Notes: generated from the letters alone by a model not told the origin. A stretch of 42,065 nucleotides of DNA from Thermodesulfobacteriota bacterium (GCA_036446115.1 JAZFSJ010000376.1:1-42065), one strand, 5' to 3'. Positions 13,575 through 36,607 are shown, numbered from the stretch's first letter. Made by a program: numbers and translations.

Positions 13575-15203
13575 GTGGCAAAGAGATTAACCAAAAGACA
13601 AAAAGAAAAGAAACTCGAAAAAATTGAGATTCTTAGAAAACAAATAGCAGAATACAAGGAAGCTATCGAAGTAGCAAAAGAGGCAAATCCATTTGTGTTC
13701 TTTGAACCTTCAGACGGAACTATCCCTCCAGACAGAATGGGACTTCTGAATGAGTTTTTAAAAGAAGATGATCTGCCGTCTGGGAAGTTGGATTCTCAGT
13801 TAGACTGTGTTCTGAGCGAAGCTAACATTATTGGTGCTTCAGGTGGTAACAGGGCAGGTAAGTCAGCCATCAGTGCGATTAAGGGTGCTATCAAGTCCAC
13901 AGGAGAGCTTCCCAAGGCTTTAAAGGAGTACGAACATACACCATCAATAGCAAGGGACTTAGACCGCTTTAAGAGACGTTTTGCCAAGGGACAACCGATA
14001 TTAGGTCGTGTTATAGGCGTAGATTTTAAGCAACTATCAAATACTGTAATACCAACATGGCAGAAGTGGATTCCGAAAGAATATTTACTGAATGGCAAGT
14101 GGAAGGATTCATTCTCAGCACAACATTCGACTCTATCACTGTTTAAAGATAATATTTGCTGTGCCAAGATAGAGTTTATGACTAATCAGATGGACGCAAC
14201 GTCCTTTCAGGGACCGGACTTAGATTGGGTGATGTATGATGAGGAGCCGAAACTATCTATCTACAAAGAAAACAACTACCGTTTTGGTACTTCTGAGTAT
14301 CTTGACGTTGGGATTTATTGGACACCGACTCAGGGGCTGACTTGGGCTACCGATTTGTTTCATAACTCTGGACTTTTCGATGATGAAGAGGAAGGTGTTG
14401 AGACAAACGTAGAATTATTCAAATTATGCTCTGTTACGAACAAAAAGGTTAATGTAGGTGTTTTAAGGTCGATTCTCCAAGATGCAATGTCGTATGAAGA
14501 GATAAGAATGAGGCTCTTGGGAGAGGCAATAAGTCTTTCTGGCTTGGTTTACGGACGACTTTTCACGAAAGAGCATATTATAGAGCCGTTTATAGAGGAC
14601 TATCACTCGAAACATGAGTATCTATGTATTACAGGCATGGATCCTCACTTAGTAACACCTTCTGCAATGGTTTTTCTCTTAGTTGATAGGGAAAACAACT
14701 GGTATATAGACAGATGCCACTCAGATGACGGTGATACAGAGCAAATGAAAGAACATTGGCACGAGATTGTTAAGACAAATGGATACAGAACAGGTTGGGC
14801 CGTTGCAGATAAGTCGAGCAATAGCTCGATCATGGCCTTTGGTGGACGAAACATATTCAGAGAACTTAGTATGGGAGCAAATGCTATACCTGCTCTCAGA
14901 ACTTCAGAGAAGTACGAAGGTTCAATCAAGGCAGGAGTTGATGAGATTAAGAAACGACTCCGTAATAAGACTCTTTTTATCGTTAACAGAAAAGAAAATA
15001 AAGACCTGATACAGTCTTTCAGGACCTTAGAGAGAGAAACATACGCAAATGAAGAGTTGAATGGCCCTAAAGACCGTATAAGAGAGGGTAAACACCACTT
15101 TCACGCAGCTTTTAGGTACATTTCGCAGTATCCTTGTTCATGGTACGGAGAAGTAATACAGGCTCCAGAACCTGAATTTTATGATGAAGCAGCCCAATAT
15201 TAG
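13575..15203 (+). CDS. terL: terminase large subunit
   Basis: It has Walker A GASGGNRAGKS and the Walker B-like motif DWVMYDEEP. It is 542 aa, lies directly upstream of the portal, and has a GTG start. Confidence 0.8.
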   Translation: MAKRLTKRQKEKKLEKIEILRKQIAEYKEAIEVAKEANPFVFFEPSDGTIPPDRMGLLNEFLKEDDLPSGKLDSQLDCVLSEANIIGASGGNRAGKSAISAIKGAIKSTGELPKALKEYEHTPSIARDLDRFKRRFAKGQPILGRVIGVDFKQLSNTVIPTWQKWIPKEYLLNGKWKDSFSAQHSTLSLFKDNICCAKIEFMTNQMDATSFQGPDLDWVMYDEEPKLSIYKENNYRFGTSEYLDVGIYWTPTQGLTWATDLFHNSGLFDDEEEGVETNVELFKLCSVTNKKVNVGVLRSILQDAMSYEEIRMRLLGEAISLSGLVYGRLFTKEHIIEPFIEDYHSKHEYLCITGMDPHLVTPSAMVFLLVDRENNWYIDRCHSDDGDTEQMKEHWHEIVKTNGYRTGWAVADKSSNSSIMAFGGRNIFRELSMGANAIPALRTSEKYEGSIKAGVDEIKKRLRNKTLFIVNRKENKDLIQSFRTLERETYANEELNGPKDRIREGKHHFHAAFRYISQYPCSWYGEVIQAPEPEFYDEAAQY

Positions 15204-25009: not shown

Positions 25010-25666
25010 ATGCCACTTAAAGATATAGAATCTCGAAAAGCATATAGTAGAGAATACCATATAAGAAATAGAGAAGAAATCTTAAGAAGGCACGCAGAGT
25101 ATCGTGGCGTGAATAGGGATAATATTAATAGAATACAAAATGAAAAATATATACTAAATAAGGAAGCTATAGCTCAAAAGCAAAAGGAATACCGCGATAA
25201 AAACCCTGAAAAGGGGAAAGAGGCTTCTAAAAAATATCGGATGGCGAATAAGGAAAAAATAAAGAAAAAAAATTCGATATGGAGAGAGAAGAATAAAGAA
25301 GTTTTGTCAGAAAAATCTAAAGAGAAGTATGCCTTGAATAAAGAACAAATAGACACAGCCAATTCTGTTTATATTAAAACGCCTAAGGGCAAGTATTCAA
25401 AGTGTAAAAGTAATGCGAAGAGACGCGGTATAGAGTTTGACGTATCTTTAGAGGATTTCGCAAAATTCTCAGAACATGAATGTTGCTACTGTGGTACAGA
25501 AATGGAAGCAATAGGTATAGATCGAGTTGATAACTCTAGGGGCTATATATTTGACAATATGGTTGCATGTTGCGTTAATTGTAATTTCATGAAGCAGCAA
25601 CATAGTAGAGATGACTTTTTTGAGCATTGCATTAAGATACTTAAGCATCAAGGGATAATATTATGA
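25010..25666 (+). CDS. HNH endonuclease with N-terminal Lys/Glu-rich 15-aa tandem repeats
   Basis: The C-terminal motif is CCYCG...IDRVDNSRGY..DNMVACCVNCNFMK. The N-terminus has about 7 repeats of x-Y-x3-N-x-E-x-I. Confidence 0.7.
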   Translation: MPLKDIESRKAYSREYHIRNREEILRRHAEYRGVNRDNINRIQNEKYILNKEAIAQKQKEYRDKNPEKGKEASKKYRMANKEKIKKKNSIWREKNKEVLSEKSKEKYALNKEQIDTANSVYIKTPKGKYSKCKSNAKRRGIEFDVSLEDFAKFSEHECCYCGTEMEAIGIDRVDNSRGYIFDNMVACCVNCNFMKQQHSRDDFFEHCIKILKHQGIIL

Positions 25667-34410: not shown

Positions 34411-34764
34411 GTGGCTGATAATACTACAATAAATTCTGGGGTCGGCGGTGACGTAATAGCCACTGACGATATAGGTGGTGTTAAACATCAACGCGTCAAG
34501 GTTCAGCATGGAGTAGATGGCAGTGCTACGGATGTTAGTTCTGCCTCCCCATTGCCAGTAACTGATATTCAGATAGCAAACCTCGTAGGCTTTGAAATAC
34601 CTGCTTATGACTACATAGCCCTTACTTATGTAGCGGCAGGTAACGGTGCGGGTGAAGTGGAGACTGTAGTATATAAAACGGGTGGTAGCGGTGGTACAAC
34701 CGTAGCTACTCTCACACTAGCTTATAATGCTTCAGATGAGATAAGCGCAGTAACGAAGACATAA
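34411..34764 (+). CDS. tail fibre-associated protein (117 aa, GTG start)
   Basis: GGDVIATDDIGGVKHQRVKVQHGVDG...SPLPV. GGAG lies 8 nt upstream, and the gene lies directly upstream of the tail fibre. Confidence 0.45.
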   Translation: MADNTTINSGVGGDVIATDDIGGVKHQRVKVQHGVDGSATDVSSASPLPVTDIQIANLVGFEIPAYDYIALTYVAAGNGAGEVETVVYKTGGSGGTTVATLTLAYNASDEISAVTKT

Positions 34765-34765
34765 T

Positions 34766-35668
34766 ATGTCATTTAAATTTAATTTCTTTACAGGTACGTT
34801 CGACAAGGTGATTTCCGACCATACTCTTTTATCCAATAAGGGCACGAACACCCACGCCCAAATAGATACCCATATTGCAGATACTACTGATCCACATGGA
34901 GCCACGCTTACGCAGACCACTTTAAATGTTACTGGAAATTTAGACGTAGACGGTACTGCAAACTTAGACGACACAGATATAGACGGGCAAGTTGGAATTG
35001 GGACAGCTCCTAACAGCAACAGAGACATAAACATAGACAGGAGTTCATCCAGCACCACAAATCCACAATATAGTTTTATTTCCGCTATAAGGCAAGATAC
35101 TGCTACTGCAAATAATATTATAGGTATGAGTTCATCTGCTATATCTGAACATACTTCTGGAACTATTGCGACTTTAGCAGGGTACTTAGGCGGCTCTATA
35201 GTTAATAGTGATAGTGACGTTACCGTTGCACATGGATTAGTACCTACAGCAGAGGTTGCAGATGGGTTTACGCCTACTTTGGTTATTTTATCAGGAGCAT
35301 CTACTCAAGTCTTAGCAAGAGATGCAACTGTACTTTTTGCCGTTAGTATTTGGGCGCAAAAGGCAACAAAGGATACAGGAACCATTACCAATGCTATATC
35401 GGGTTACTTTGAAGAACCTACATCTGGAACTAATAATTGGTCCGCTTTATTCGACGGGGATATACAGGTAGGCACAGGCAAGAAGTTATTATTAACAGGC
35501 GCATTGGGAACAAAAGGTACAGTAGGACTTAGTGCCAATTCTGGAAGTCCAGAAGGTGCAGTTACCGCTGGAATTGGGTCTTTATACTTAAGAACAGATG
35601 GTGGTGCGGGCACATCTATGTACGTCAAGGAGTCTGGCACAGGCAATACAGGTTGGGTAGGCAAATAG
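34766..35668 (+). CDS. tail fibre protein
   Basis: The N-terminal motif is HTLLSNKGTNTHAQIDTHIADTTDPHG. The C-terminus is GSLYLRTDGGAGTSMYVKESGTGNTGWVGK. Both are typical of phage fibre ends. Confidence 0.65.
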   Translation: MSFKFNFFTGTFDKVISDHTLLSNKGTNTHAQIDTHIADTTDPHGATLTQTTLNVTGNLDVDGTANLDDTDIDGQVGIGTAPNSNRDINIDRSSSSTTNPQYSFISAIRQDTATANNIIGMSSSAISEHTSGTIATLAGYLGGSIVNSDSDVTVAHGLVPTAEVADGFTPTLVILSGASTQVLARDATVLFAVSIWAQKATKDTGTITNAISGYFEEPTSGTNNWSALFDGDIQVGTGKKLLLTGALGTKGTVGLSANSGSPEGAVTAGIGSLYLRTDGGAGTSMYVKESGTGNTGWVGK

Positions 35669-35677
35669 GAGTAGGTT

Positions 35678-35941
35678 ATGACACCAGAACAAAAGAAAGT
35701 AATAGCTAAATTCAGAGAGCAGTATTTCGCCGAGCATGTTATCGGAGTAAATAATAGAATACCTCTTGCTGATTTTATGGTTAAAGGGCAGGCAGAGCAG
35801 GTTGCTTTCATTAAAACCTGGACGCAGGAGCGGTATCAGAAAATGATAGACTTAGAGGTGAGTTTGACTGCGCAGCAAGGCAGGGTAGCTTTTCAAAAGG
35901 AAATTGCTCGTAAGGCTCTTAGCGATTGGGAAGTCGGATAA
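35678..35941 (+). CDS. hypothetical protein (87 aa)
   Basis: Track ORF downstream of the fibre gene. Confidence 0.5.
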   Translation: MTPEQKKVIAKFREQYFAEHVIGVNNRIPLADFMVKGQAEQVAFIKTWTQERYQKMIDLEVSLTAQQGRVAFQKEIARKALSDWEVG

Positions 35942-35945
35942 AATA

Positions 35946-36332
35946 ATGCTCCTACCTCTCCTACAGAATATCAACCTCACTGAGTGGATTGGTGATATAT
36001 CTATATCTGACACTTGGGTAGCCCTACAGGAAACTGTTGCTTCGTGGTTGGGTTTTCAGGAGGGTTCTGGCTCATGGGTTAATATAGGTGGGGTTAGTTC
36101 GGCATGGGCTTTATCAGGGGCGGTCTCGGATTCTTGGTCTACACTACAACTGTCAAATGGTGCGTGGGTGGCCTTACAATCTGGGTCAAGCTCTTGGAGC
36201 AAAAAGGTAGGGGCTACAAGCTCTTGGACTCTTTTACAAGCCGGAGCAGGTAGCTTTGTGGCGGGTCAACCCTCTTCAGGGTCATGGGTGGGGCAGGCTG
36301 GAGCTACAGGTGGGTGGGTTGGTCAATCTTAA
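35946..36332 (+). CDS. decapeptide Trp-repeat protein (128 aa)
   Basis: Track ORF 35904..36332, trimmed to the ATG 4 nt after the previous stop. An aromatic residue occurs at every 10th position from residue 14 to 124. Confidence 0.6.
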   Translation: MLLPLLQNINLTEWIGDISISDTWVALQETVASWLGFQEGSGSWVNIGGVSSAWALSGAVSDSWSTLQLSNGAWVALQSGSSSWSKKVGATSSWTLLQAGAGSFVAGQPSSGSWVGQAGATGGWVGQS

Positions 36333-36607
36333 CTCTTTTCCATGATGTAGCTCTCTAATAACCCAGCAATAACTCTCCATAAATCAATAGCATACTTATC
36401 AAGGAAAGTCGTTTGTCCCCGATGGATTTCATCATGATGAATATGGCATAGGGGTATTGTATGGTAATCAGAGCATTTAATCCCGACTCCTCCTGCTGAA
36501 CTATGGTGGGGAATTGCTTCTCCTTTACAGTTTATAATAAGACAAGGTTTCCTTCTGATGTATGCCAAGTAAGACTTTGACCTTGGAGTTCTAGTCTTAA
36601 AATTCAA
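36329..36607 (-). CDS. HNH/His-Me finger-like nuclease (prophage DUF968-like)
   Basis: CLIINC....PHH.......SDYHTIPLCHIHHDEIH. Confidence 0.45.
   Translation of the reverse strand: MNFKTRTPRSKSYLAYIRRKPCLIINCKGEAIPHHSSAGGVGIKCSDYHTIPLCHIHHDEIHRGQTTFLDKYAIDLWRVIAGLLESYIMEKS

Follow-up and report, generated by a model that had tools for sequence, protein, structure and literature searches.

A tryptophan decapeptide repeat protein encoded at the end of a podophage late operon, and the recurrence of its design beside phage fibre genes

The window analysed here, a stretch of 42,065 nucleotides recorded as Thermodesulfobacteriota bacterium (GCA_036446115.1 JAZFSJ010000376.1:1-42065), is one whole contig of a metagenome bin and reads as the genome of a short-tailed phage. 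Among its genes are those of a portal protein (PHROG 1216) and of the major capsid protein (PHROG 1328), the latter with 35-39% identity to its counterparts in the phages HTVC106P (Pelagibacter), NV1 (Pseudomonas) and phiM5 (Sinorhizobium) and in Manatee Spring phage genomes. An HNH/endonuclease VII-like gene at 25010-25666 lies between virion genes of the structural operon (PHROG 3118/3322/1035 matches). At its 3' end, the late operon on the + strand carries genes for proteins of 117, 300, 87 and 128 aa, in that order, the last of them with a tryptophan (Trp) decapeptide repeat. The Trp gene (35946-36332) is the last of the operon, and the strand then switches to convergent HNH-type genes; a DUF968/HNH-like gene on the - strand (36329-36607) marks the operon end. 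The stop codons of these two genes overlap (36325-36336), and a consensus scan found no terminator-like hairpin between them.

The 117-aa protein (34411-34764, + strand) has an N-terminus of 28 residues, MADNxxxxxGxGxxIATxDxxGVxxQ, that matches a protein encoded just upstream of an 8-unit Trp-module protein in another locus, L197, described below (46% over 28 aa, with an E-value of 2e-4 that applies to a single comparison). Next to it lies the gene for the 300-aa fibre/spike-like protein (34766-35668, + strand), whose last ~45 residues (GSLYLRTDGG...YVKESGTGNTGWVGK) are a widespread phage fibre/tailspike C-terminal motif. This protein gave 1,421 protein matches, mostly over 14-25% of the query and many with PF12708 pectate-lyase-type domains, and it also matches the C-terminal ends of PHROG families. 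Because the C-terminal motif is common to tailspike proteins, we regard the 300-aa protein as a fibre or spike protein. The motif, GSLYLRTDGG...YVK...GW, is present at 60-90% identity in over 1,400 proteins, which differ greatly in length and include pectate-lyase-type tailspikes and Acinetobacter phage Loki gp21, and by its distribution it looks like a widely exchanged fibre-end module. A link between the 300-aa protein and the capsid spike gp52 of phage Pa223 was considered and is unsupported, a PDB search with the 300-aa fibre being empty.

The 87-aa protein (35678-35941, + strand) is the conserved small partner of this fibre gene. It is 30% identical (E-value 7e-6) to a 78-aa product encoded at 1494-1730 of locus L487, where it too follows a homologue of the fibre; both are small, helical proteins encoded directly 3' of a fibre gene, in two distant phages. 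The 87-aa protein has no Pfam or PHROG match and its sequence database searches were also empty, and it is likely to be a fibre assembly or attachment factor. Of the relatives of the 300-aa fibre gene, the closest is in L487 (41% identity), which keeps the 87-aa partner and has a coiled-coil ORF where the Trp gene would stand. Since this relative lacks a Trp gene, the fibre does not appear to need the Trp protein, and in the window phage the Trp gene looks like a replaceable add-on at the operon end, a status that fits its low codon adaptation.

The Trp gene runs from an ATG at 35946 to a TAA at 36330-36332, and its product begins with MLLPLLQNINLTEW. Twelve in-frame 30-nt units (35958-36317, + strand) each end in TGG, except for unit 10, which ends in TTT. 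Trp residues are accordingly found at positions 14, 24, 34, 44, 54, 64, 74, 84, 94, 114 and 124 of the protein and Phe at 104, in the Trp register, which makes a strict period of 10 without insertions or deletions; the chain ends with the four residues VGQS after the last Trp. The only aromatic residue outside this register is F37. All Trp fell into one mod-10 class in 0 of 200,000 residue shuffles of the protein. At the DNA level, the pattern TGG-N27-TGG-N27-TGG-N27-TGG occurs six times in the window, always inside this ORF, where 0.01 occurrences are expected, and it is absent from the rest of the 3.1-Mb bin that carries the contig. The translation and the 10-residue aromatic period reported in a first-pass annotation of this DNA were thus reproduced. 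The consensus that it gave, x-S-x-S-W-V-x-L-Q-x, is roughly right: from residue counts we obtain W-[V]-[GA]-[L]-[Q]-x-x-[S]-[GS]-[S].

The repeat units are old and diverged. Tandem Repeats Finder reported nothing for them, and their mean nucleotide identity outside the Trp codon is 32%, compared with 25% for shuffles. Third codon positions are 28% identical, which is near random, and the Ser preceding Trp uses four codons (TCG, TCA, TCT and AGC). These results support the earlier suggestion that selection on the protein, and not recent slippage, maintains the period. When units are compared at lags of 1 to 6, even lags are faintly preferred (7.3, 7.3 vs 7.1, 6.3, 5.0), and we consider this preference too faint to claim a super-period of two units per turn.

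The ORF is a genuine gene, a late gene of a LUZ24/HTVC-type short-tailed phage, and the frame and start proposed for it are borne out by its codon score, its ATG site and an independent gene call. Its frame has a codon log-odds score of +0.17 and is the only one with a positive score, the other five ranging from -0.24 to -1.06. This value is at the low end of those of the phage's other late genes (0.12-0.44), and the synonymous-codon fit of 0.02 is the second-lowest among the late genes (-0.01 to 0.33 for the others). The ATG lies 4 nt 3' of the stop codon of the 87-aa gene. A weak Shine-Dalgarno-like GGA(T) at 35936-35939 (+ strand), 7-10 nt 5' of the ATG, abuts that stop codon (35939-35941) with one base in common, an overlap that suggests translational coupling of the two genes. 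Most late genes have GGAG or AGGAG, and weak GGAT/GGGAT sites are also seen at 13575 and 25663. By consensus scan there is no promoter or terminator of note around the Trp gene. An independent assembly (GCA_044231025.1, contig JAZHBT010152107.1, 42,078 bp) contains identical DNA, in which the 128-aa gene is called in the same way.

Queried by sequence, databases yielded nothing for the 128-aa protein. It has no match in Pfam at E <= 0.1 and none in PHROGs, and nothing was found by tblastn against 50,697 phage records, by word-indexed HMMER over 5.8 billion clusters, by full phmmer over 1.84 billion representatives, or by searching IMG/VR with back-translated patterns. PDB sequences gave noise alone (E > 0.5), and a 5-sequence family alignment used as query also found no sequence match. 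The signatures of RTX beta-rolls, pentapeptide repeats and choline-binding repeats (CW_binding_1) are absent from the protein, whose period is 10. The first-pass annotation did not recognise the repeat as a named family, and the searches agree: in Pfam and PHROGs there is no match for this protein or for any of the architectural relatives described below, Caudo_TAP/Tfa and Peptidase_S74 included, and a literature search found no paper on a phage Trp-decapeptide repeat class. The class is new to Pfam and PHROGs; phage fibres made of short repeats are already known.

Because all these searches were empty, we scanned public DNA for the codon period itself, using a pattern of TGG every 30 nt, repeated 7 to 12 times, with non-T positions added against short-period repeats. 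Most matches were junk, and filtering by open frame and low identity between units left a coherent set of Trp-decapeptide proteins from IMG/VR, metagenome loci and the cultured phage OANV2 (Octadecabacter Antarctic DB virus 2). In genome contigs, the matches listed were off-frame low-complexity repeats and included no real member. We discarded as unrelated the off-frame (WL)n-type matches, W-x4 'GGxW' pentapeptides, 'KGSEWKVTEM' repeats and 'SKPWQK' repeats. Among these other Trp repeats, IMG/VR loci L034, L050, L091 and L092 contain long GG[VIT]W[RKH] pentapeptide arrays with a Trp period of 5, whose open frames span 135-285 aa. Two unrelated 10-residue Trp repeats were also seen, as 'KGSEWKVTEM'-type arrays on short metagenome contigs (L249, L276, L291, L312 and L347) and as 'SKPWQKxE' arrays at the C-terminus of proteins with RNA-recognition-motif-like starts (L261 and L356).

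The Trp-decapeptide design recurs in uncultured phages and in one cultured phage, mostly beside fibre genes. Eight loci encode stand-alone 12-unit proteins of 136-142 aa (L127, which is the same as L160, and L145, L230, L151, L199, L263, L305 and L247). In seven of the eight, the 12-unit gene abuts or overlaps the 3' end of a large ORF and is followed by genes for the small and large terminase subunits, portal and capsid proteins; the exception is L247, where the upstream gene encodes 147 aa and no terminase follows. The whole upstream ORFs encode 923, 1479 and 1522 aa and that of L263 at least 1278 aa, those of L151, L199 and L305 running off the end of the locus. None of the large ORFs has a Pfam match, and a PHROG scan of two whole ones gave no match for L127 and weak matches for L145; judged by size and position, they may be fibre genes. 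Two kinds of N-terminal leader occur in the set, Tyr/Gly-rich (GYY..YYG, YGxGxYG) and (SWGx)4. In L145, L230, L151, L263 and L305 the second kind consists of four (S/N)SWG tetrapeptides (MASSWGLSWGNSWGNSWG), which form a second, shorter Trp period ahead of the decapeptides.

In other proteins the Trp module is at the C-terminus (L011, L038, L110, L149, L168, L172, L197, L187, L303 and OANV2 gp11). Larger proteins end in 8 units (L197) or in 8 or 12 units (L187 and L303). The 6-unit class comprises proteins of 177-279 aa together with the 509-aa OANV2 gp11; each has six C-terminal Trp decapeptides, all carry shaft-like repeats of 20-22 aa, and L011 and L038, in which the whole protein could be read, have a Tyr/Gly-rich N-terminus. 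Genes flanking the 6-unit proteins have strong PHROG 'tail fiber protein' matches or annotations. OANV2 gp11 (URC15513.1; MW805364.1 7065-8591; L244 3660-5186) consists of a separate N-terminal domain of ~210 residues, about nine 22-aa 'LTADNVESASETTAPEIGQTHA' repeats and the six Trp decapeptides, and it sits between an annotated tailspike and an annotated tail fibre. Its annotation as 'ribonuclease E' is unsupported by sequence and, given this repeat layout and these neighbours, looks like a spurious low-complexity match. We found no significant homology between gp11 and the large upstream ORFs of L230 and L145. Overall, the Trp-period search advocated by the first-pass annotation did reveal proteins with the exact period, nearly all of them with fibre genes as neighbours or a very large ORF immediately upstream.

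Across 17 other proteins, every one of the 151 units is exactly 10 residues long, with zero indels, and the units start with Trp in 147 cases, Tyr in 3 and Phe in 1. Unit counts are 6, 8 or 12, all even. Every other member ends 1-6 residues past the last Trp, Lys and Arg are rare, and the residues between the Trp are hypervariable across members. Their unit consensus is W-[TSA]-x-[QE]-[AS]-[DN]-x-[SAT]-[TSE]-[TS], with preferences for Gln or Glu at +3, Asp or Asn at +5, and Thr or Ser at -1 and -2. This consensus is highly significant, in that the real profile score of a member is reached by only 0-6 of 500 shuffles in which Trp is held fixed.

The protein in the window is an outlier in this set or, perhaps, a convergent copy. 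Its likeness to the others is one of architecture, unit number, terminus, lineage and, broadly, context: it has 11 Trp and one Phe without indels, in 12 units followed by a tail of four residues, and it comes from a podophage of the lineage with PHROG 1328-type capsids. Capsid genes in L263, L230, L168, L197, L110 and L172 encode relatives of the window's capsid protein (35-38% identity), and L110 has the portal and capsid PHROG families of the window phage. In the fine detail of the units the likeness appears to stop. The window protein does not follow the unit consensus of the other members, and only its last two units (WVGQAGATGGWVGQS) resemble it. The family profile gives it 35.9 bits, compared with 30.5 +/- 5.0 for Trp-fixed shuffles, and its score is reached by 151 of 1000 such shuffles and in a second test by 67 of 500 (p about 0.13-0.15). 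Shuffling the order of its units gives scores equal to that of the real order, which indicates that the 12 units cannot be matched one-to-one with those of other proteins. It also lacks the Tyr/Gly-rich and (SWGx)4 leaders, and it is rich in Ser, Gly, Val and Leu, near neutral and more aliphatic, in contrast to the acidic other members. Its gene follows the 300-aa fibre-like gene with the 87-aa gene between them.

The first-pass annotation had pictured the protein as a regular solenoid; structure prediction did not bear this out and, by the refuting condition set in that annotation, weakens the idea. AlphaFold2 gave a mean pLDDT of 34.0 for the monomer from the single sequence and 35.5 with a 13-row alignment of architectural relatives (this alignment has a 10-column gap, and MAFFT with more rows misaligned Phe104 relative to the Trp of the others). 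Both models have almost no secondary structure and are unusable. Such low pLDDT would fit disorder and a fold that depends on oligomerisation or a partner equally well. On a charge-hydropathy plot, the folded region takes in the window protein and L303, and the disordered region the acidic members. Aliphatic residues make up 23% of the window protein, in a strand-like W-V-x-L pattern, and 7-17% of most members. The acidic relatives have hardly any large hydrophobic residue other than Trp, which makes it likelier that the Trp form a core than an exposed ladder. Zero indels, the position preferences of the other members and a fixed unit count are typical of regular repeat structures, and they speak against plain disorder and for a regular structure of one kind or another. 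The family profile does match the 'GGSSWGKKDD' WG/GW decapeptides of Arabidopsis RDM3/KTF1 (PDB 8hyj chain W, E-value 2.3e-8). We reject this match as a sign of descent: it is to a low-complexity repeat and shows likeness of design alone.

We infer, tentatively, that the Trp protein is a virion-fibre accessory in which the Trp are periodic core or anchor residues that become ordered on assembly. The Trp side chains would be the only strongly constrained residues of the chain, and would serve, once in every unit, as buried or anchoring positions within an extended, regular structure. This structure would arise only on assembly, either in an oligomer (a trimeric beta-structure, for example) or when the chain is zipped to the trimeric fibre or hub, and the failure of AlphaFold2 to fold the monomer fits a structure that needs partners. 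The nine residues between successive Trp would be exposed and free to diverge with host range. It follows from such an arrangement that the protein would be a structural or adhesive end-piece of the fibre apparatus in the virion, and not an enzyme. A bolder form, which we consider possible and rather doubtful, is that the Trp array represents a new virion building block, a strand with 12 evenly spaced Trp pegs. The strand could make up an oligomer with an as yet unseen Trp-core fibrous fold, or it could be zipped onto a trimeric fibre or hub as a length-defined adaptor for a symmetry mismatch. The fixed count of 12 would then be a ruler, and the block would be used in a podophage lineage of marine and fresh waters, in some cases fused to fibres and in others as a separate subunit.

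Several other explanations were weighed against the view of the protein as a fibre accessory with core or anchor Trp. Chaperones that act on fibres are typically encoded directly after the fibre gene, as in T4 (gp38/gp57A), lambda (Tfa) and Mu/P2 (Tfa). The Trp protein could similarly help the upstream fibre to trimerise, or cap its tip, and be absent from or lost by the mature virion, with the C-terminal versions being intramolecular chaperone domains. Its place after a fibre gene is typical of fibre chaperones, its occurrence as either a C-terminal fusion or a separate downstream gene is the pattern of intra- and intermolecular ones, and transient chaperone caps have been described on Alteromonas phage fibres (PMC10579305). 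We nevertheless think this role unlikely: the protein resembles none of the chaperone families, Caudo_TAP and Peptidase_S74 included, and shows no cleavage motif. In this phage it is the 87-aa protein whose gene is the conserved small one behind the fibre gene, L487 lacks the Trp gene altogether, and 6-unit modules lie at the end of proteins that have the look of a fibre shaft. Closer to the glycan-binding role raised in the first-pass annotation would be a lectin, that is, a monomeric beta-solenoid whose exposed Trp ladder stacks on the sugars of a host polysaccharide and so binds the receptor in a primary or auxiliary capacity. Carbohydrate-binding modules usually hold a glycan chain by means of aromatic platforms. 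The module is also at the C-terminal, usually distal, end of fibre-like proteins, and its inter-Trp residues are hypervariable, as in host-recognition surfaces. The missing solenoid in the AlphaFold2 models, the hydrophobic make-up of the acidic relatives (which favours a core over a ladder) and the absence of likeness to any carbohydrate-binding family make us sceptical of it.

The low pLDDT values would suit a disordered multivalent hook, each Trp of which enters a pocket of a repeated or oligomeric phage or host partner, as would the place of the acidic members in the disordered region of the charge-hydropathy plot. Such a protein might work outside the fibre, in host takeover or counter-defence. 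The profile match to the RDM3/KTF1 repeats speaks for a hook too, as does the position of the gene at an operon end, where add-ons accumulate, with the second-lowest synonymous-codon score. Disordered linkers normally tolerate length change, however, and here there is not one unit indel across very diverged sequences. The other members have position-specific preferences, the window protein is on the folded side of the plot with its strand-like aliphatic pattern, the context consistently consists of virion genes, and the RDM3/KTF1 match is to a low-complexity repeat, and we hold a hook of this kind to be improbable. Far less probable still is a chance or decaying ORF at the meeting point of two convergent operons. 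The empty search among 1.84 billion representatives, the weak ribosome-binding site and the low codon adaptation would all be expected of such an ORF, but the perfect register of 11 Trp and one Phe is beyond chance, the frame is open and alone in having a positive coding score, and the 12-unit design is present in at least seven other phage lineages.

The known repeat folds from which phage fibres are built form a small set, and exchanging them is how host range is engineered. If our reading is right, a 10-residue unit in which Trp alone is conserved would be a new element of this set. It is kept free of indels, comes in 6, 8 or 12 copies, and is invisible to Pfam, PHROGs, HMMER and AlphaFold2, and DNA scans for codon periodicity recover such families where sequence searches fail. 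Because the cultured phage OANV2 carries the module, the choice between core, anchor and lectin is directly testable.

Comparison with known systems places the protein among several periodic designs. The gp38 adhesins of T2/T6/S16-type phages are, like it, small separate proteins encoded after the distal fibre gene, and they resemble the set in having conserved short scaffold motifs that alternate with hypervariable segments. Their motifs are glycine-rich, forming a polyglycine-II sandwich, and lack a Trp period, and no search found sequence similarity between them and the window protein. In WG/GW Ago-hook proteins (SPT5L/KTF1/RDM3 and GW182-type), Trp likewise occur every ~10 residues in a polar Gly/Ser/Asp-rich chain, and each Trp anchors into a pocket of the partner, Argonaute. 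These hooks differ in being eukaryotic and Lys-rich, with near-identical, recently expanded units at variable spacing that bind Argonaute; their Trp, flanked by Gly in a disordered region, fit PIWI pockets of Argonaute in RNA silencing. The Trp of the window protein are flanked mostly by Ser and Val, its gene lies in a phage late operon, and among PDB sequences the window protein alone does not match 8hyj chain W.

Short-period beta-solenoid and fibre repeats offer a structural analogy. The RTX nonapeptide beta-roll has the signature GGxGxDxUx, and the C-terminal triple beta-helix of T4 gp5 is built from VxGxxxxx octapeptides (PMC4576200). Together with pentapeptide repeats, these share with the Trp protein a fixed short unit with one inward hydrophobic position and polar or small residues elsewhere, and repeats of this kind are used in elongated, often trimeric, phage appendages. 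Their periods are 8 (gp5), 9 (RTX) and 5 residues and not 10, and the inward residue is Val, Leu or Phe instead of Trp.

Periodic Trp within one chain are also known from the same broad phage lineage: in the fibre attachment loop of the Pa223 hub protein gp59, W363, W370 and W377 form a hydrophobic plug that holds the base of the trimeric fibre (bioRxiv 10.1101/2025.06.11.659172). That loop, part of a large hub protein, has three Trp spaced 7 residues apart, unlike a 12-unit array; as a precedent it shows Trp pegs linking one chain to a trimer. If the Trp described here are pegs by which a monomer docks on trimeric fibres, they would extend this attachment principle. The other phage Trp-decapeptide modules are like the window protein in their indel-free period, in the 12 units of the stand-alone form, in the chain end close after the last Trp and in the scarcity of Lys and Arg. 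Most of their genes lie in the virion-fibre neighbourhood of podophages with a related capsid protein; that of the window protein lies near a fibre-like gene and is separated from it by the 87-aa gene.
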